This document shows positions 3,210-64,000 of a stretch of DNA of 64,000 nt, piece after piece (positions within the stretch are counted from its first letter, which is position 1; each line of letters opens with the position of its first letter). The notes beneath the pieces were generated by a model. It made no database searches. It was not told the DNA's origin and saw nothing but the letters and a program-made list of their open reading frames with translations. A program made the position numbers and the translations under genes. The stretch comes from Candidatus Latescibacterota bacterium (lineage in GTDB: Bacteria; Latescibacterota; CBDEFO01), in contig CBDEFO010000008.1 in NCBI GenBank assembly GCA_965237525.1, positions 64,001-128,000 of the forward strand, given 5' to 3'.

Positions 3210-3398
3210 ACTGCAAAGCCGCGGCAATTAAGGATAAGGACATAATGGGTTGCTCTCTTGAACACCTACCACTTTTATCGAAAAAATGTATTGATATTCG
3301 GAGGCAAGATATCGCTATATTCGGAAATCAGAATTGCCATGATTTCATAAATAGATTATATACCACATCAGAAGAGTGTAAGGACCTTTTTTTAATTT

Positions 3399-5387
3399 AT
3401 GGCGACAAGGACTGAGGATTTCAAAACTGATTATACCTTTGGCCAGGAGAGACCACCTCGACGTTTTACCGTCAGATCTTTTGTTGTGGGAGCAGCGCTC
3501 TCCCTTTTTATATCCATAGCCGCCCCATACAGCGATGCCCATATCATGGGCTCCTGGATGGCTGGAGCCTTCAGCAACGGCATCGCTCTCTTCCTGCTAT
3601 TTATCCTCGTAGCGATACTAAATCCCCTTTTGAAATTGATCAGGAAGGGGATCGAGTTTGAAGCCACCGAATTAGTTACGATCTACATTATGATGATCGT
3701 AGCTTCGTCCATAGTGGCTGTGGGCCTCACAGAGCACCTCCTTCCTACCATTGTCGGTGTATACTACTTTGCTACCCCTGAGAACGACTGGGTCAATCTG
3801 ATTCATCCATATATCCCCGATTGGATATCCCCGAGCGATCCAGAATATATCAACTATTTCTACGAAGGTCTGCCCAGGGGAGAGGCGATGCCGTGGGGTA
3901 TATGGATCGGGCCCCTCTTGTACTGGTCTTCTTTTGCCATTGCCCTGTATTTTGTGATGATATGCATGATGGTGATCTTAAGGAGGCAGTGGGTGGAGAG
4001 GGAGAGGGTGATCTATCCGTTTGCCCAGACACCTATGGAGATGATAGGGGACGATAAGAGTGGTTATTTTGCGCCATTTTTCAAAAATCCCGTCATGTGG
4101 CTCGGATTTGCCATCCCCTTTATCATAGACAGCATAAATTCTCTCCATGGATTCTACCCATTCATCCCAAGGATAGACGTTTGGTCCTCTATGTCTATAT
4201 TTCGCAACACAATTCGCTTTTCTTTCGCAACCATCTTTCATGTCATCGGATTCGTTTATCTCATACCCCGCGACGTCGCCCTTGCGATTTGGTCCTTCTC
4301 CCTCTTTGCCAACGTGGAGCAGGGCATATTCAATATCATCGGTCTTCAAGAGACCAGAATGACGAGCATCTATATTTCTCACTGGACATCCAATTCACCG
4401 TATCTGCTCCATCAGGGCATGGGAGCTATGATAGCGTTTGTCATGTTAGGGCTGTGGACAGGTCGCGAGCATCTCAAAGGCGTCCTGAGGAAAGCATTCA
4501 AAAACGATCCCAATGTGGACGACTCGGACGAGATTCTATCTTACCGGAGCGCTTTCTTTGGCATGGTTGCAGGGCTCCTCTTTATGACCTTTTGGCTGTG
4601 GGCCAGCGGAATACCCTTGTGGATCGTCCCGGTATTCTTGTTTGGAGCTTTTGTCGTCTATACAGCGATGACCCGTGTAGTAGCAGAGGGAGGGATGCCT
4701 GATATGCGGCCACCGATGCTTGGTGCAGACTTCGTCATAACGGGGCTTGGGACCTCTGTTTTAGGGCCCAAAGGATTAGTTGCTCTGGGGCACACGTTAA
4801 CCTGGCACGGTGAGATGAGGACGTTTGTTATGGCTTCGTGCGCCAACGGGCTCAAGTTGATCAATGTGGTTGCAGGTAATAGAAGGCCACTCTTTTGGGC
4901 GATGATGTTATCCATCGTTCTGAGTCTGGCAGGATCGATGTGGATCGTGCTGTACCTTGCATACGAAGAAGGCGGTATCAACCTCTACTCCTGGTTTTTC
5001 GGCGGGGCTCCCAAAGTACCCTTCATTTACATAACTTTAAGGGTGAAGGAGGCCCTTACTCCCGATATCGGAGGATGGATAGCGACAGGCGTAGGGGCAT
5101 CTGTTATGGGCCTTTTGACCTTTATCCGCTACCGCTTTATATGGTGGCCTATCCATCCCATCGGCTACGTAATCACCCCCGTGTTCTTAATAAATCAGTT
5201 GTGGTTCAGCGTCTTTTTAGCGTGGTTCTTGAAGGTAGTCATACTCAAATACGGCGGCGCTGCAGTATTCAGGAAAACTCGACCTTTCTTTTTAGGTCTG
5301 ATCTTGGGGCAGATGGTCGTGACAGGGACATGGCTCATTATAGAATTCTTTACAGGGATGAGGGGCAATGGCATCAGGGTCTTATAG
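3399..5387 (+). CDS. Polytopic membrane protein, DUF6785/DUF6784-type putative transporter (paralogue 1)
   Basis: Many hydrophobic segments, motifs RRQWVERERVIYPF, WWPIHPIGY and PFFLGLILG. Confidence 0.8.
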   Translation: MATRTEDFKTDYTFGQERPPRRFTVRSFVVGAALSLFISIAAPYSDAHIMGSWMAGAFSNGIALFLLFILVAILNPLLKLIRKGIEFEATELVTIYIMMIVASSIVAVGLTEHLLPTIVGVYYFATPENDWVNLIHPYIPDWISPSDPEYINYFYEGLPRGEAMPWGIWIGPLLYWSSFAIALYFVMICMMVILRRQWVERERVIYPFAQTPMEMIGDDKSGYFAPFFKNPVMWLGFAIPFIIDSINSLHGFYPFIPRIDVWSSMSIFRNTIRFSFATIFHVIGFVYLIPRDVALAIWSFSLFANVEQGIFNIIGLQETRMTSIYISHWTSNSPYLLHQGMGAMIAFVMLGLWTGREHLKGVLRKAFKNDPNVDDSDEILSYRSAFFGMVAGLLFMTFWLWASGIPLWIVPVFLFGAFVVYTAMTRVVAEGGMPDMRPPMLGADFVITGLGTSVLGPKGLVALGHTLTWHGEMRTFVMASCANGLKLINVVAGNRRPLFWAMMLSIVLSLAGSMWIVLYLAYEEGGINLYSWFFGGAPKVPFIYITLRVKEALTPDIGGWIATGVGASVMGLLTFIRYRFIWWPIHPIGYVITPVFLINQLWFSVFLAWFLKVVILKYGGAAVFRKTRPFFLGLILGQMVVTGTWLIIEFFTGMRGNGIRVL

Positions 5388-5454
5388 GGAACTGGCGCAT
5401 TTATAATAGCTTATATACCACATTAGAAGGGTGTAAGGACCCTTTTTTTAATTT

Positions 5455-7461
5455 ATGGAGACAAGGACTGAGGATTTAAAAACTGATTATACCTTTGGCC
5501 AGGAGAGACCGCCTCGACGTTTTACCGTCAGATCTTTTGTTGTGGGTACAGGACTCTCCTTTTTTATATCCATAGCCGCCCCATACAGCGATGCCATGAT
5601 TATGGGCTCCTGGATGGCTGGAGCCTTCAGCACCGGTGGGGCTCTCTTCCTTCTATTTATCCTTGTAGCAATACTAAATCCCCTTTTGAAATTGATCAAA
5701 AGGGGGATCGAGTTTGAAGCCACCGAATTGGTTACGATATACATTATGATGATCGTAGCTTCGTCTATAGTGGCTGTAGGCCTCACCGAACACCTACTTC
5801 CGGCAATCGTGGGTGTATACTACTTTGCTACACCTGAGAACGACTGGGTCAATCTGATTCATCCATATATCCCCGATTGGATATCCCCTCGAGATCCAGA
5901 GTATATCAACTATTTCTACGAAGGTCTGCCCAGGGGAGAGGCGATACCGTGGGGGATATGGATCGGGCCCCTTTTGTACTGGTCTTCGTTTGCGATTGCT
6001 CTGTATTTTGTGATGATATGCATGATGGTGATTTTAAGAAGGCAGTGGGTGGAGAGGGAGAGGGTGATCTATCCGTTTGCTCAGACACCTATGGAGATGA
6101 TAGGGGACGACAACAGTAGTTATCTTGCGCCATTTTTCAAAAATCCAGTTATGTGGCTGGGATTTGCCATCCCTTTTGTCATAGACAGCGTAAGGGCCCT
6201 CCATGGATACTACCCATTCATTCCAGACATACGCATTGGAGTCGGGCACGCCGCCGCGCCCAGTATGTTCATGTTTGGCGGGACAATTCACATTCTTTTC
6301 ATGTTCCGCTTTCATGTTATTGGATTCGTTTATCTCATACCCCGCGACGTCGCCCTTGCGATTTGGTCCTTCTCCCTGTTAGCCATTCTGGAGCAGGGCA
6401 TATTCAATATGCTCGGTCTTCCACAGACCACAATGACGAGTATCTACATTTCTCACTGGACATTAAATTCACCGTTTCTGCTCTTTCAGGGCATGGGAGC
6501 TATGATAGCCTTCGTCCTGTTAGGGCTGTGGACAGGTCGGGAGCATCTCAAAGGAGTCCTGAGGAAAGCCTTCAAGAACGATCCGGATGTTGACGACTCG
6601 GACGAAATTCTATCTTACCGGAGCGCTTTCTTTGGGATGGTTGCAGGGCTCCTTTTTGTGACCTTTTGGCTGTGGGCCAGCGGAATACCCCTCTGGATCG
6701 TTCCGGTATTCTTGTTTGGAGCTTTTGTCGTCTATACAGCGATGACCCGTGTAGCAGTAGAGGGAGGGATGCCTGATATGCGGCCACCGATGCTGGGTTC
6801 GGACTTCGTCATAACGGGGCTTGGGACCTCTGTTTTAGGGCCCAAAGGATTAGTTGCTCTGGGGCACACCTTGACCTGGCACGGTGAGATGAGGACGTTT
6901 GTTATGGCTTCGTGCGCCAACGGGCTCAAGTTGATCAATGTGGTTGCAGGTAATAGAAGGCCGCTTTTCTGGGCGATGATGTTATCCATCGTTGTGAGTT
7001 TGGCAGGATCGATGTGGATTGTGCTGGACCTTGCATACGGAGAAGGCGGTATCAACCTCTACCGCTGGTTTTTTAACGGGGCTCCCAAAGTACACTTCAT
7101 TTACATAACTTTAAGGGTGAAGGACGCCCTTACTCCCGATATCGGAGGATGGATAGCCACCGGCATAGGGGCATCTGTTATGGCACTTTTGACCTTTATC
7201 CGCTACCGCTTTATATGGTGGCCTATCCATCCTATCGGCTACGTAATCACCCCCGTGTTCTTAATAAATCAGCTGTGGATTAGCGTCTTTACAGCGTGGT
7301 TTTTGAAGGTAGTCATACTCAAATACGGCGGCGCTGCAGTATTCAGAAAAACTCGACCTTTCTTTTTAGGTCTGATCTTAGGGACGATGGTCGTGGCAGG
7401 GACGTGGCTAATTGTAGATTTCTTCACTGGAATGAGGGGCAATGGACTTTATGTCTTATGA
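5455..7461 (+). CDS. Polytopic membrane protein, DUF6785/DUF6784-type putative transporter (paralogue 2)
   Basis: Tandem paralogue, nearly identical to 3399..5387 outside a central variable segment. Confidence 0.8.
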   Translation: METRTEDLKTDYTFGQERPPRRFTVRSFVVGTGLSFFISIAAPYSDAMIMGSWMAGAFSTGGALFLLFILVAILNPLLKLIKRGIEFEATELVTIYIMMIVASSIVAVGLTEHLLPAIVGVYYFATPENDWVNLIHPYIPDWISPRDPEYINYFYEGLPRGEAIPWGIWIGPLLYWSSFAIALYFVMICMMVILRRQWVERERVIYPFAQTPMEMIGDDNSSYLAPFFKNPVMWLGFAIPFVIDSVRALHGYYPFIPDIRIGVGHAAAPSMFMFGGTIHILFMFRFHVIGFVYLIPRDVALAIWSFSLLAILEQGIFNMLGLPQTTMTSIYISHWTLNSPFLLFQGMGAMIAFVLLGLWTGREHLKGVLRKAFKNDPDVDDSDEILSYRSAFFGMVAGLLFVTFWLWASGIPLWIVPVFLFGAFVVYTAMTRVAVEGGMPDMRPPMLGSDFVITGLGTSVLGPKGLVALGHTLTWHGEMRTFVMASCANGLKLINVVAGNRRPLFWAMMLSIVVSLAGSMWIVLDLAYGEGGINLYRWFFNGAPKVHFIYITLRVKDALTPDIGGWIATGIGASVMALLTFIRYRFIWWPIHPIGYVITPVFLINQLWISVFTAWFLKVVILKYGGAAVFRKTRPFFLGLILGTMVVAGTWLIVDFFTGMRGNGLYVL

Positions 7462-11555: not shown

Positions 11556-11885
11556 GATGAAGGTGGCACTATGGTCACCAAGTCCCAGACGAGCCAGCGT
11601 TGCCATCATGAAGATCGAAGGCATCAGCATCATCTTTCATAGAAATTCTGTCGGAGAATAAGGCCGACTTCCCCAAATACGCAGGAATACCTGATGTAGT
11701 TCAACGATGCATCGAAGACGACCTGGGTGTAGATGAAGGCAAAATTGCCCAAAATCTTATAAATTGGGAGAATTGTCGTTCACTCAAATATGAGCTTTTT
11801 CAAGACATAGCGTACAGATTTTCAATTGACTGTCAAGCCTTCGGTAATTCTCTTTCTTCCACGAGCAAAAACAATAGAGATTTTT

Positions 11886-12855
11886 ATGAACGACGGAGTT
11901 ACACACAGACTCGCTCCGAAGGTCTATTATTACACCTTCGGACCCAATGAGCCAGCTCTTGTGGTCAAGAGCGGGGATAGGGTCACCGTCAAGACCCGCG
12001 ACGCGTATGGATTCGACGAAAATATGAACCCTATCACACAGGAGGAAAAACAAAAGAGCGAAAACACAGAGCTCCGAGAATCGAATCCGGTAGTGGGTCC
12101 TATCTACGTCGAAGACGCCCAAGTTGGCGATGCACTATCTGTGTTCATCGAAAAGATCGCTTTGAACAGACCCTACGCATGGTCCATGCACTTGCCCAAC
12201 TTCGGTTCTTTCACAGGAGAGGGCCCCGGCAGATCTTTGCTTTTGAACGATCCTATTCCAGAGGCGAAGTATGACTGGAATCTGGATTTAGACGGAATGG
12301 TAGGGACTCTGGGACTCTCCAAGAGCAAGATAGGAAACGTAGAGATCTCTCTGCATCCATTTATAGGCTCAATAGGCGTGGCACCGCGCTATGGGCGCGT
12401 GGAGATGACGCTGACGCCGGGAGAATACGGGGGCAATATGGACTGTGTCGAGACGAAGGAGGGGACAACTCTCTATCTGCCCGTCGGGTACAGGGGAGCG
12501 TATTTAGAGTTTGGAGACATCCACGCCGCTCAGGGCGACGGAGAAATATGCGGCGTGGGTCTGGAAAACCACAGCGGAAGTGACCGTTCGGATAGAAGTG
12601 ATAAAAGGATGGAACATCGAAATGCCCAGGCTCGAAGATGAGACACACATTATGAGCGCAGCAAGCTCGCGGCCCTTTATGGAGGCCCTCCAAGCAGCTT
12701 ACATAGATATAGTCAAGTGGCTTGTGAAGGACTACGGGCACGAAAAATGGGAGGCCTTTCAGGTCTTATCTCAAGTGGGCACGATGCGAGTGGGAAATGT
12801 AGTCGATCCCAACTACACAGCAGTGGCTAAGTTTCCCAAGAGATATCTGTCGTAG
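11886..12855 (+). pseudogene. Acetamidase/formamidase family gene, frameshifted near 12565
   Basis: NPVVGPIYVEDA, GGNMD, GDIHAAQGDGEICG. One extra A in CTGGAAAACC; removing it gives LETTAEVTV and joins the two ORFs. Could be a sequencing error. Confidence 0.85.
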
Positions 12856-12865
12856 GGAACCTTAT

Positions 12866-12940
12866 GTAGGGGCAATCCCCGATTGACTCTATCGGGGGTC
12901 GGGGACTACTCGCCTCAAGGGCAGGGAACCGTGCCCCTAC
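12866..12940. repeat. GTAG-type REP-like palindrome hosting a 19-bp element
   Basis: GTAGGGGCA...TGCCCCTAC inverted arms downstream of the acetamidase stop. Confidence 0.7.
12878..12896. repeat. 19-bp palindromic element, copy 1 (with extra GGTCGGG tail to 12903)
   Basis: TC|CCCGATTGACTCTATCGGG GGTCGGG|GA. Confidence 0.9.
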
Positions 12941-12992: not shown

Positions 12993-13467
12993 ATGCGATT
13001 TAGCAGAACAATAAAGCTTAATAAGAATCTGTCCCAAGCGTCAGATCTTGTGCGCAGATATTTTACAGAAGAAGGATACAGCCTCAAACAAGAGTCGGAA
13101 GGAAGCTATATCTTCGAGCGCGGGAAAAGATGGGTGTCACTATACACCTTCAGAATAGAGAAGTGTCACACTCTCCTGAACGCTGAGCTTGAAGAGATAG
13201 ACACCAATTCTACAAAATGCACTCTTTCGTATAAGGTACAGTCCCCGATTGAATCTATCGGGGATCGGACAGATTATCTTGAAGCTCGACAGGGAATTCT
13301 GGGAATATGAATTGAATAACTTGATCTCTTTTGTGGAAGGCGGCAAAAGAGCTGAGGAGAAACATGAGTTCAATCAATACAGAAGGCGGAGGGTCGTCGG
13401 ATGGATATTGAAGTACGGCACCATTCCCGGTGTAGTGATAGGCATAATCAGTGTCAAAGGCTGCTGA
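12993..13467 (+). pseudogene. Hypothetical membrane-anchored protein gene frameshifted by a 19-bp insertion
   Basis: ORFs 12993..13310 and 13249..13467 join in frame (SYKVQSIGQIILKLDREFWEYEL) when 13244..13262 is removed. Confidence 0.8.
13244..13262. repeat. 19-bp palindromic element, copy 2
   Basis: TC|CCCGATTGAATCTATCGGG|GA. Confidence 0.95.
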
Positions 13468-13556: not shown

Positions 13557-13594
13557 CCCGATTGACCCCCCGATTGAATCTACTGGGGGTCGGG
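13557..13594. repeat. 19-bp palindromic element, nested copies 3 and 4
   Basis: TC|CCCGATTGACCC[CCCGATTGAATCTACTGGG]GGTCGGG|GA; inner copy 13569..13587. Confidence 0.9.
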
Positions 13595-17596: not shown

Positions 17597-17818
17597 AGCT
17601 GGGTCTTCCTCCTCCCTGGGCGTGATTCTTGAGAATGCCAGGGGATGCGAGAATCACAGTGAGGTATTAGTACAGCCTACTATATGGAGTTTGACAAGCA
17701 TAACGACCAAGCTGGCTGGCGGCGATGGAGTGCCAGCCGAATCCCCGTCCACTCCAGCGCCTTGTCAGGATGGATTAGTAACAATCCTTTGTACTGCCCC
17801 CCAGGAAAGCGACACCAA

Positions 17819-18702
17819 TTAAGCGACCTGGGGTAGTAGATAAAATTGTTTTCTCCACTCTTCCGGGGTCTTATATCCCAGGGATGAATGAAGCCTGTTC
17901 TTGTTGTAATTATCGATCCACTGAGATATGATCTTCTCAGCCTGTTCAAAGGATTCAAACTTGTGAAGCCAAACACACTCTTGCTTGAGGGTCCTGAAAA
18001 AACGCTCTACAACACCGTTCCAATCGGGATTACCACTTGGTATGTATTCCTGACGAATTCCCCAATATTCGGTACTTGCCAAATAGGTCCGAGACAAAAA
18101 GATGGAGCCGTTGTCAGAGCGAAAAGTGAGACCCTGGGGGACAGCCTCCTTGGAAGTGTATCGAGAGATCACGGCCCGATCCAGGGCATCTGTGGCCTCC
18201 AGTGCCCTCCCTTTTCGACTAAAACGATACCCGGGAACCTCCCGACTCCCGTTGTCCACCACCGCAATAAGAGGACACCAACCGTCTTCCCCACAATAGA
18301 CCTTGGTCAAGTCAGCCGACCAGAGACTGTCAGGACGATCCATCACAGAACGCTTCTGGGCAACCTGTGGCCCCTTTCTCCCGGGGTCCCCGATTGATTC
18401 TATCGGGGATTCCACAGCTTACACTGCCACCCCTTAAGCTTCATTATCCTATGAACCTTCTTGATGCTGACACATTCCCCTTCCTTGAAACGAAGATGCG
18501 CCCAAACCCGCCTGTGACCAAATGCCTCTTCTTGGTCGAGTATCCCTCGAACACGAAAAGCAAGCTGTTCATCTATCACAGACTCTTCGACAGAAGAACT
18601 GACACCTCTATACCTAAGCCTATACAGAGTCGAACGATGCAAACCCAAAGCCAAAGCTACCACCTTACGGGAATAGCCTCGACCCAAAAACCGCCCACTC
18701 AA
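17819..18702 (-). pseudogene. IS3 orfB transposase interrupted by a 19-bp element
   Basis: FGHRRVWAHLR, WSADLT, SDNGS, NGVVERFFRTLKQE. The element at 18389..18407 supplies a stop. Confidence 0.85.
18389..18407. repeat. 19-bp palindromic element, copy 5
   Basis: TC|CCCGATTGATTCTATCGGG|GA. Confidence 0.95.
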
Positions 18703-19009
18703 GGCAACCGCTTCGTTTTTTTAGACGGGCTACCTCCTCGAGTATCTCCAACTGGAGGGTTAACTGCCCTACCTTACGCTCCAACCGGCTGACCTCCCAC
18801 TCCTTCGGATCCTTGCGACCACGCCGAGACTTCAGACTCTCCTGCCCTCCTTCCAGGAAACTATCACGCCAGGCATACGCCTGTGACTGGCTAATTCCAT
18901 TCTTCCGACACACCTCTGATACATTCGCTCCTTTCAAAACAGCCAACACCACCTCTACCTTACGGGTCGCCGTCCAGCGCTTACCATCTTTCACTTCGGG
19001 GCTTGACAA
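18665..19009 (-). CDS. IS3 orfA, HTH protein
   Basis: KVEVVLAVLKG-NVSEVCRKNGISQSQAYAWR followed by a coiled coil. TTG start after GGAGG. Confidence 0.85.
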   Translation of the reverse strand: MSSPEVKDGKRWTATRKVEVVLAVLKGANVSEVCRKNGISQSQAYAWRDSFLEGGQESLKSRRGRKDPKEWEVSRLERKVGQLTLQLEILEEVARLKKRSGCLEWAVFGSRLFP

Positions 19010-19292
19010 TTTGACCTCCCTTCTCAAACCCCAATTTGCGAAATATTTGTCGCTCTGTCAAGGGGAGCGGTATGTTACGATCGGAGCCCCACCAATTTCA
19101 ACTAAAAATAGGACTTGACCTATGAGATCATGCGTGAGAGTTATCAGGATAACAGGCAAAGGTGGGATGAGGTCCTCAACATGGAAGAGGTGATCCTACA
19201 CATCTACAAAAAATTCTGACATACTTGCATCGATTTCAGAATTGTGCTACATCATGATACCTAAATCGGCAAACGTGGAACCTCTACATATA

Positions 19293-41488: not shown

Positions 41489-43009
41489 AAAGCCTTGTGA
41501 AAAACCCTTAGATTCAGAAAGTAGTATAGAACAAGCATTGATAAAGCAGCTCCGATGTATTATATTATGTTATTGATAATATTATACATGGAGGAAACAA
41601 TGACCCCACAAAAGCAGGAACAGACAAATCCGATGTTTCACTATTTTCAGATGGAGGATTTAGTTCCCGAGGATCATATCCTTCGTCAGATTGATGAGGC
41701 AGTTGATTTTTCATTTGTACGAGACGTTGTATCAGATTGTTATTGCCCTGACAATGGCAGACCCGGTATTGATCCTGAATTAGTTGTTCGAATGATCCTT
41801 ATTGGCTATCTGTATAATTTGAGTGAGAATCGGCTCTGTCAGGAAGTGGGGATGCATGCGGCATATCGGTTGTTTTGTCATCAGACATTTGATGATGCGG
41901 TTCTGGATAGGAGCACGATCAACAAGCTTCGCAATCACAAGTGGGCATCCAGTGGGTTGTTTGAACGGATAATGCGTCAGGTAGTCCAGTGTTGCATAGA
42001 TGTCGGTCTTGTGAGCGGTAAACACCTTAGTGTCGACGGCACTCAGATACAAGCTGATGCTTCAGTGAAAAGTATTGAGCCGATAGAACCCCCTGTTTCT
42101 CTTGATGATTATCTCAAGGGAATCGGTTTTGAAGGTGATAAGACAAAGGGTAGGTCCGGGCATCCTCAGGATAAAGACTTTCATGGTGAAAAGTGGACGA
42201 ACCAAACACACCGTTCGACTACAGACCCCGACGCGCGCTTATACAGCAAATCGAAGGGCAAAGGGGCTTTTCTCTCGTTTATGGGCCATGATCTGATCGA
42301 CACAAAAAGCAGAGTAACCCTTGAGACTCAGGGCACGCAGGCGACAGGGACAGCAGAGCCCGAAAGTGCCCTTAAGATGGTAGATGACCTTGAAACATAC
42401 ACCATGCCCAAAGACATTCAGACACTTAGTGCCGATACCGGTTACGGTTCTGGTAATTTTATCGCTGATGTACTTGACCGGGGAATCATACCCCATATTC
42501 CTCTGCGAGCCGATGAGAAGATTGAACCGATTCCTACATGGAAAAACAAGACAAATTCAGCACATATTCAGGCCGAACGGGATAGAAAAGTGTGAGAGGC
42601 GAAAGCCAGAAATCATGCACGGTCTATCTCATTAACAGCTGACTACAAACTCTCCCGGAGACTCCGTAAACGCAGTGAACATATCTTTGCTGAAGCCAGG
42701 CAACAACACGGTATGGGACGAGCCCGTTATAGAGGACCAGCCTCACTGAATGAACAGTTGAATCTTGTTGCAACAGTACAGAATCTCAAGAGGCTTGTAT
42801 CTTTCATAAGAAGGGGGAAAGCGTCTATGTGTGCCCTGCCTGTCAAAGACAGTGCATCCTGTTCTTCAAACAGCTCCTGTTCCTTGCTGACCAGAACTCT
42901 GATAAGACTATTTTGCTTATTCCACAGCAAAACGATACGATATGCTACTCTTTGACCCATAATCGGCGCTTCAGACGCTGCCTGGGACATAACTATTTCA
43001 CAAGGCTTC
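41489..43009 (+). mobile_element. IS1182-family insertion sequence, copy 1
   Basis: IRs AAGCCTTGTGAAA / TTTCACAAGGCTT; TA (or TAA) target duplication; DUF772 + DDE transposase. Confidence 0.92.
41600..42955 (+). pseudogene. IS1182 transposase with a nonsense mutation (TGA at 42593-42595)
   Basis: EDLVPEDHILR, GRPGIDP, VDGT, ADTGY. Copy 2 has CGA at this codon. Confidence 0.9.
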
Positions 43010-43122
43010 TAAGGCAGCAAGAACAAGGACGTTGGCTCGCCATATGAACTGCCGAATTCTTAGAATGTATTTGCCCATAATCCAAAGCACTAGTCGCACA
43101 CGGAGTGCACGTTGCACCACCT

Positions 43123-62708: not shown

Positions 62709-62882
62709 CAAGAACTACTTGGCCATCGCGATTACTCTACCAACCTAAGTATGGTCACCTTGCGCGTGGACACGTCAAGGACTTGACCACTGGAAGACCT
62801 TAGAAGGCGGAAAAATCGTATATTCGGAGTCGGAAGTTGATCCATGAATCTGCTCATCAATTTATCATGATAGTAGACATTA

Positions 62883-64000
62883 GAAGCCTTGTGAAATAGT
62901 TATGTCCCAGGCAGCGTCTGAAGCGCCGATTATGGGTCAAAGAGTAGCATATCGTATCGTTTTGCTGTGGAATAAGCAAAATAGTCTTATCAGAGTTCTG
63001 GTCAGCAAGGAATAGGAGCTGTTTGAAGAACAGGATGCACTGTCTTTGACAGACAGGGCACACATAGACGCTTTCCCCCTTCTTATGAAAGATACAAGCC
63101 TCTTGAGATTCTGTACTGTTGCAACAAGATTCAACTGTTCATTCAGTGAGGCTGGTCCTCTATAACGGGCTCGTCCCATACCGTGTTGTTGCCTGGCTTC
63201 AGCAAAGATATGTTCACTGCGTTTACGGAGTCTCCGGGAGAGTTTGTAGTCAGCTGTTAATGAGATAGACCGTGCATGATTTCTGGCTTTCGCCTCTCGC
63301 ACTTTTCTATCCCGTTCGGCCTGAATATGTGCTGAATTTGTCTTGTTTTTCCATGTAGGAATCGGTTCAATCTTCTCATCGGCTCGCAGAGGAATATGGG
63401 GTATGATTCCCCGGTCAAGTACATCAGCGATAAAATTACCAGAACCGTAACCGGTATCGGCACTAAGTGTCTGAATGTCTTTGGGCATGGTGTATGTTTC
63501 AAGGTCATCTACCATCTTAAGGGCACTTTCGGGCTCTGCTGTCCCTGTCGCCTGCGTGCCCTGAGTCTCAAGGATTACTCTGCTTTTTGTGTCGATCAGA
63601 TCATGGCCCATAAACGAGAGAAAAGCCCCTTTGCCCTTCGATTTGCTGTATAAGCGCGCGTCGGGGTCTGTAGTCGAACGGTGTGTTTGGTTCGTCCACT
63701 TTTCACCATGAAAGTCTTTATCCTGAGGATGCCCGGACCTACCCTTTGTCTTATCACCTTCAAAACCGATTCCCTTGAGATAATCATCAAGAGAAACAGG
63801 GGGTTCTATCGGCTCAATACTTTTCACTGAAGCATCAGCTTGTATCTGAGTGCCGTCGACACTAAGGTGTTTACCGCTCACAAGACCGACATCTATGCAA
63901 CACTGGACTACCTGACGCATTATCCGTTCAAACAACCCACTGGATGCCCACTTGTGATTGCGAAGCTTGTTGATCGTGCTCCTATCCGGAACCGCATCAT
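62883..64000 (-). mobile_element. IS1182-family insertion sequence, copy 2 (runs off the window)
   Basis: Near-identical reverse complement of about 41892-43009; same right end followed by TAA. Confidence 0.95.
62937..64000 (-). CDS. IS1182 transposase, 5' partial, frame intact in the visible part
   Basis: Same protein as copy 1, but reads through RKVREAK. Confidence 0.92.
   Translation of the reverse strand, partial: DAVPDRSTINKLRNHKWASSGLFERIMRQVVQCCIDVGLVSGKHLSVDGTQIQADASVKSIEPIEPPVSLDDYLKGIGFEGDKTKGRSGHPQDKDFHGEKWTNQTHRSTTDPDARLYSKSKGKGAFLSFMGHDLIDTKSRVILETQGTQATGTAEPESALKMVDDLETYTMPKDIQTLSADTGYGSGNFIADVLDRGIIPHIPLRADEKIEPIPTWKNKTNSAHIQAERDRKVREAKARNHARSISLTADYKLSRRLRKRSEHIFAEARQQHGMGRARYRGPASLNEQLNLVATVQNLKRLVSFIRRGKASMCALSVKDSASCSSNSSYSLLTRTLIRLFCLFHSKTIRYATL

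Follow-up and report, generated by a model that had tools for sequence, protein, structure and literature searches.

Small dispersed repeats, SDR1-8, were reportedly described by Elhai et al. in 2008 in Nostoc and its relatives. One of them, SDR5, is presented in the cited part of PMC4390886 as inserting precisely into the octamer HIP1. The CGTC-tagged REPs, which include Neisseria dRS3 and Rickettsia RPE-4 and RPE-6, have no dedicated transposase according to the sections of Di Nocera et al. 2013 drawn on here (PMC3733652), and they raise the question of how palindromic repeats this small can spread if they have no transposase to themselves. For P. fluorescens SBW25, the REP doublet is the moving unit, and the relevant passages of PMC3116915 report that excision of singlets was not seen.

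Here we analyse a gene that is broken by a dispersed hairpin, within a window of 64,000 nt (G000:C8:64001-128000, G000 being the genome that carries it), and compare it with the same-genus genome G001. The locus adds the anatomy of the junction, in that it corrects the boundaries of the element and shows insertion to be a replacement of target bases. Its features are collected in Table 1.

Results

A broken gene with intact relatives

A sequence-only reading of the window had proposed that one palindromic element knocked out a gene by adding 19 bp, leaving two overlapping ORFs one frame apart, and the core of this proposal stands. The ORFs lie at 12993-13310 (105 aa) and 13249-13467 (72 aa), with a near-palindrome at their overlap; the frame is shifted after codon 83 of the 151-aa gene, and the G001 ortholog is a single intact 151-aa ORF whose alignment to the window contains one 19-bp gap, at the palindrome. 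That reading had noted that removal of 21 or 23 bp does not restore the frame; among removals of 15-29 bp, only those of 16, 19, 22, 25 and 28 bp do so. A dispersed palindromic element is indeed the cause of the frameshift, and it is mutagenic.

Table 1. Coordinates within the window of the broken gene and of the element copies discussed in the text
Feature	Position	Strand	Remarks
Broken gene	12993..13467	+	Encoded a 151-aa protein of a family without a name; predicted helix-grip/START-like fold and hydrophobic C-terminal tail; relatives intact
Truncated ORF	12993..13310	+	105 aa, 83 native and 22 insertion-altered residues; record P0003
Codons 85-151	13264..13467	+	Now in the +1 frame; over these residues the same as the natural intact allele P0004
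Hairpin element	13242..13264		23 nt, YC-CCCGATTGANTCTATCGGG-GR; 8-bp stem, 7-nt loop TGANTCT; in place of ACGA
Core	13244..13262		19 nt; length equals the net gain here
Second element copy	12876..12898		Within a GTAG-REP-like hairpin 5' of the gene; missing in G001 (net +27)
Third element copy	13567..13589		Between the gene and tRNA-Glu, with a half copy beside it; common to G001
Copy in IS3-type orfB	18387..18409		Breaks the frame of the transposase gene (net +20); carried by several IS copies

When the N-terminal 83 residues were used as a query, matches were found in two of 41 genomes, G000 and G001. The 90% protein cluster has four members, the three 151-aa proteins P0001, P0002 (from G001) and P0004, and the truncated 105-aa P0003. 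P0004 differs from the two halves in the window by a single residue outside the junction, where it still has Thr; QTIGQ is found there in all three intact proteins, and the alignment of 28 family members gives the consensus VxTxGQ (Thr). Collinearity across the junction, which had been named as a check on the reconstructed protein, was confirmed: distant homologues align through it and have no extra residues there. At E <= 0.001 the protein has 45 relatives among 1.84 billion representatives, and no family name for it was found in Pfam, NCBIfam or Atlas. Matches to START/Bet v1-like folds are weak (query TM-scores < 0.5), making this predicted fold a lead only. The C-terminus, taken earlier for a TM helix, does end one continuous ORF in the relatives, but it is only moderately hydrophobic (Kyte-Doolittle mean 1.74, residues 128-146), with pLDDT < 50 for residues 136-151 of the structure model. 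In the predicted fold, the break comes after the strand at 73-82 and removes the helices at 91-110 and 117-135 together with the hydrophobic tail; therefore, the function of the protein was likely lost. The broken gene is an ordinary pseudogene of a small, unnamed protein family.

Other changes were seen in the same window. In the acetamidase/formamidase gene 5' of the locus (11826-12855), which is intact in G001 (342 aa), an additional A at 12565 shifts the frame; among the runs, only X1 has this A, and X2 carries another +1, at 12725. The gene may have begun to decay separately in two strains, or the changes may be errors. A tandem duplication spans 3350-5740 and 4190-7193 (period about 2.06 kb, 86-92% identical), and identical inverted 1,121-nt copies of an IS1182/IS5-like transposase gene occupy 41892-43012 and 62880-64000. 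G000 contains 132 occurrences of a 60-mer of the latter, the mark of a large and recent expansion of the IS.

Filled and empty alleles at the locus

The empty allele of G001 reads CAG ACG ATC at the junction, and the element stands where it has ACGA, 23 nt for four and a net gain of 19. Contigs bridging the site carry the element in runs X1, X2, X3 and X4; this assembly may itself derive from X1. In run X5 the empty allele (depth 7) occurs alongside the filled one (depth 2), and run X7, from the same sample, contains the empty one; the filled allele was found in contigs of four studies (X1, X2/X3, X4 and the minor allele of X5). The intact alleles, represented by G001/P0002, P0001, P0004, the major allele of X5 and X7, are without the element, as are distant homologues. 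An assembly artefact, or an ancestral element deleted in the relatives, might be considered in view of the other G000 frameshift nearby, the extra A at 12565 in run X1 alone. Both are refuted by the contigs of four studies that bridge the filled site, X1, the possible source of the assembly, among them, by the two alleles in X5 and by the family alignment, whose distant homologues have no additional residues at this point; their probability is negligible.

The sequence-only reading had expected an empty allele with TCGA at the junction, encoding VQSIGQI and hence Ser. Empty alleles do exist, in G001, X5 and X7, but they read ACGA. In those of X5 and X7 the letters from 13242 (the T) onward are absent, and a T at 13242 was seen in no empty allele. 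Since Thr is kept in P0004, G001 and the family consensus, the T came with the element. TCGA as the target and Ser84 as the ancestral residue are ruled out by G001, by P0001, P0002 and P0004, by the family alignment and by the X5/X7 alleles. Taken alone, the site can be read in three ways: as 19 bp with a change of A to T, as 21 nt in place of two, or as 23 nt in place of four. The pattern across the genome speaks for the 23-nt unit. The empty target of the 151-aa gene forms no hairpin (z 0.40).

Sequence, size and distribution of the element

In G000 (4.58 Mb), the 17-nt core has 138 exact sites and 499 sites at <=2 mismatches, and a 2-Mb Markov control contained none at this threshold; 14 copies (<=3 mismatches) lie in the window. 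Positions -2/+2, outside the 19-mer, pair as T-A or C-G in 347 of the 446 copies with distinct flanks (204 expected), and pairing falls below expectation at -3/+3 (115 vs 157) and -4/+4 (71 vs 114). Ends of the form YC..GR are present in 413/499 copies, the fold of the 23-mer is an 8-bp stem closed by a 7-nt loop (z -3.0), and compensatory stem changes occur (11 G-C to A-T pairs). A 23-nt hairpin describes the unit better than 19 bp does.

Copies are mostly single, 413 of 491 gaps between neighbours being at least 1 kb. Fifty of the 499 carry a CCTG/CTTG tail, a half copy adjoins the element at 119/412 independent loci, and contexts with the heptamer repeat TGTCTAC are also seen. GANTC, a site within the loop, is neither over- nor under-represented genome-wide (observed/expected 1.05), a value that leaves a link of the loop to GANTC methylation unsupported.

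The core pattern occurs in G000 and G001 and in none of 39 other genomes of the phylum. Scanning the collection yielded at least 64 loci, at least 52 of them in one record titled Candidatus Latescibacterota and at least 12 in others. Four genomes titled Deltaproteobacteria have 37, 11, 9 and 6 matches, one titled Thermodesulfobacteriota has 8, and the single matches in each of two more genomes (G045 and G047) may be due to chance. No exact match to the 21-mer was found in viral contigs.

Several related observations were made in G000. Sixteen copies of a shorter related hairpin of the CCCCGATTAAATCGGGG type are present, and this hairpin in turn serves the 23-mer as a target. The IS3-type element at window 17800-19030 recurs at several places with its orfB in the hairpin-broken form, and an empty form lies at G000:C8:1690318-1690474. 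Contig C2 repeats C4:546900-549800, including the same release-factor-like ORF and the same element copies, and is a possible assembly duplicate.

Insertion replaces target bases

Filled and empty sites were compared over 2.8 of the 4.5 Mb of G001, and sites with flanks below 80% identity were dropped. Among the 231 paired G000 sites, 97 were shared, 42 were simple and confined to G000, 23 were nested or partial copies, in 17 the G001 form was the longer one, and 52 were dropped; for the 210 paired G001 sites, the corresponding numbers were 107 shared, 17 simple G001-only, 12 nested or partial, 22 longer in G000 and 52 dropped. These gave 94 filled/empty rows, reduced to 85 independent events, whose net gains cluster at 18-21 and 26-27: +18 (n = 13), +19 (n = 22), +20 (n = 7), +21 (n = 6), +26 (n = 3), +27 (n = 13), +12 (n = 5) and others (n = 16). 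Only 22 of the 85 pairs have a net gain of 19, which speaks against this figure being the length of the element, as had been supposed.

Compared with their empty alleles, the 22 net +19 events differ at +/-1, +/-2, +/-3 and +/-4 in 17, 23, 11 and 6 of 44 cells, respectively; shared sites differ in 7/148 at +/-1 and 4/148 at +/-2. Over the first two bases on each side this amounts to 40/88 changed cells vs 11/296 at 74 shared sites. Changes at +/-1 or +/-2 were found in 20 of the 22 events, mostly toward the end bases of the element, so that the insertion, here with its T at 13242, was not precise in the sense first proposed. The changes are directional, with 14 of 16 purines at -2 turned into pyrimidines and 16 of 17 changes at -1 leading to C. 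Empty targets follow a loose consensus near RWC^GWY; the element itself is among them and is always entered at the same place. Events of net +18 to +21 replaced 2-5 target bases, many +27 events consist of the 23-mer with a CCTG/CTTG tail and keep all target bases, and a few +26/+27 events have a 3-4-nt duplication. Most events replace target bases, and a target-site duplication of fixed length, a trait of MITE and IS elements, was not seen among them. The direction of change, gain or loss, is fixed by an outgroup at this locus and at only a few repeats. There are also loci with a simple copy in one genome opposite the same compound copy in the other, a difference that requires templated conversion, whichever way it went.

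Mutations are known to arise by correction of quasi-palindromes, and a 19-bp unit might enter cleanly at C^G and have its palindrome perfected at the junction by later template switching, an account that comes closest to the sequence-only reading. In two of the 22 net +19 events, the two bases nearest the core are unchanged on either side, and 9 of 12 events with a mismatched -2/+2 in the empty site keep one base and turn the other into its complement, as such a route would predict. However, change goes one way only (14 of the 16 purines at -2 disappear), in five events both -2 and +2 turned into a new pair, pairing at -2/+2 is equally frequent in young (60/67) and shared (62/74) copies and ends at +/-2, several targets have no C^G (TA^GA, TC^TA), and gains of 18, 20, 21 and 27 are left unexplained. 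We consider clean entry improbable and retain the 23-nt unit.

The effect on reading frames was assessed with crude ORF calls (>=120 aa, longest first, some of them spurious). Gains that are multiples of three made up 22/28 events inside ORFs vs 25/60 outside (Fisher p 0.0014), and 12/17 vs 15/36 when only simple events were counted (p 0.077). Six frame-breaking cases fall within called ORFs, this gene included, and three of them are in IS elements. Since frame-keeping gains dominate inside ORFs, the frameshift at this locus is a minority case, and the pattern points to purifying selection against frameshifting copies.

Flanks follow core variants

Rare variants of the core travel with specific flanks. 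All nine loci of variant CCGAATGACTCTATCGG have CCTGT on the 5' side, all 11 loci of the compensatory variant CCAATTGAATCTATTGG adjoin a half copy, and over 412 independent loci the flank identity within core variants is 0.353, vs a shuffled mean of 0.290 and maximum of 0.312 (0/1000). This association suggests that new copies are made from donor copies. In a set of 18 events outside repeats, with one insertion entered twice and one compound copy among them, the best match of the flanks to those of another copy has a mean of 11.6 nt vs 9.9 nt at matched random sites (p about 0.001), an excess that a target preference of a protein would equally yield. A second donor test was mixed (25 better, 7 equal and 9 worse of 41), and the best flank match for the site in this gene is just 6+7 nt, to a copy with a different core variant. 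Together, the donor signals support homology-guided copying without proving it.

The core has no replication-strand bias (183:172 and 111:121). Strand counts of the tag are 26:10 in G000 and 11:10 in G001, under weak GC skew and with copies not de-duplicated, and are given no weight here. Two copies, at G000:C4:19149 and C6:41843, have 13+8 flanking bases and the core variant in common but lie in opposite orientation, which suggests that the core may flip or insert either way.

Search for an enzyme

No dedicated enzyme was found, in that no candidate fits both G000 and G001. A Y1/HUH transposase of the RAYT type could act in trans, cutting and joining the single-stranded hairpin with a 4-nt foot tag as guide, and guide-based choice of the cleavage site is described for RAYT-type enzymes in the cited part of PMC8266576. 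An open RAYT-like gene of 176 aa is present in G000 (E 1.8e-17, below the cut-off of the family), its downstream REP contains an element copy, three other carrier genomes have 13, 15 and 3 matches to the RAYT family, and several insertions among the 50/499 tailed copies show no loss of target bases. Yet this gene is bounded by GTAG REPs and not by the element as its own end, and G001, which has no RAYT match and lacks the gene at the orthologous place, contains 29 copies or longer forms absent from G000. Most copies are without the tag, the core is free of strand bias, and clean strand transfer would not predict the replacement of bases. We regard such an enzyme as an unlikely source of the insertions.

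The RAYT-like gene lies at L210:1441-1971 (G000:C8, about 1476118-1476648). With PF01797, neither G000 nor G001 gave a Y1 transposase; NF047646 did find one in G000, and the PF01797 negative is therefore not reliable. Among the ORFs bounded by element copies (32 + 20), none is Y1-transposase-like over the first 150 residues. Capture by NHEJ was dismissed, as none of the five genomes searched has a Ku match, and so was a small GIY-YIG nuclease, which is present once, in G000 only, and flanked by CGTC-type REPs instead of this element. Its gene (G000:C4:479893-480114) sits between two inverted CGTC-type REPs, inserted between the copies of a duplicated stretch, and has no G001 match.

For the SDRs of cyanobacteria, mobility by way of RNA and reverse transcriptase has been proposed. 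Such a route would fit the 11 compensatory G-C to A-T changes in the stem and the nesting of the element into itself and into heptamer repeats, which SDRs are likewise said to do; G001 also has two RT matches. But no RT match was obtained in G000, which is 96.6% complete, and the element has no bias relative to transcription, either inside ORFs (44:39) or between co-directed ORFs (96:97). This route has, in our estimate, a low probability.

Discussion

At this locus we observe a gain and a frameshift, and across the two genomes changed junction bases, mixed net gains and a link between core variant and flank. On balance, these are probably the outcome of copying. A single-stranded copy would be made from an existing hairpin, a few of its flanking bases would pair with the target over short homology and so determine its choice, and host repair or replication would then fix the copy; four target bases would be replaced by the 23-nt hairpin, yielding the net +19 and the shift in frame. 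Ordinary oligonucleotide recombination needs homology well above such short flanks. The spread of this one sequence and the conservation of its loop are also left unexplained by copying from donors, which suggests a binding protein.

A more general form of this idea, for which we use the term 'micro-homing', is less likely than not: any copy, with its own flanks as guide, might overwrite sites that match about 5-7 nt on each side, with no need for a dedicated transposase, and the same core might have spread in this way to unrelated uncultured lineages. If true, micro-homing would differ in mechanism from the DNA mobility of REP/RAYT, IS and retro-elements, and it could explain the spread of transposase-less repeats such as CGTC REPs and SDRs. 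The 85 independent pairs from two close genomes bear the traces of insertion, namely replaced bases, variable net gain and flanks that follow the core, and they make the question of transposase-less spread testable. As a mutagen, the element broke this gene in a lineage that is found in contigs of four studies.

How does this element relate to repeats already described? In the literature covered, mainly papers outside subscription and without their supplements, no description of it was found. Compared by description rather than by sequence, it resembles the SDRs, reported to be hairpins of 21-27 nt with hundreds of copies that enter genes, have no enzyme of their own, and nest into themselves, into heptamer repeats and into mini-elements. 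In keeping with that picture, it is a dispersed, very small repeat with filled and empty alleles in close relatives, and it inserts into its own copies and into heptamer repeats. Unlike SDR5, whose insertion into HIP1 is precise in the source as cited above, it has a loose target and replaces target bases.

With the CGTC REPs, as characterized in the cited sections of PMC3733652, the element has in common an 8-bp stem (8-9 bp in the REPs), a dispersed distribution with some copies in ORFs, and the lack of a dedicated transposase; it also inserts into CGTC-type repeats. It differs from them in that a CGTC, TGTC or CCTC tag followed by AT is present in only 3/499 copies, that its loop has 7 nt instead of 4-5, and that its copies are mostly single and not dimers. 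GTAG REPs and REPINs are likewise short hairpins with copy-number turnover between close relatives, in the cited parts of PMC3116915 and PMC8266576, and G000 has a RAYT-like gene. However, the GTAG foot tag is found in just 27/499 copies, in contexts derived from the target. Single copies are gained or lost here, unlike the REPINs of SBW25 as portrayed in that portion of PMC3116915, and no transposase gene is bounded by this element, as it would be in the RAYT system, so far as the cited sources describe it. The element works like SDR and REP-type repeats, yet it departs from the REPs in tag, loop and doublet structure.
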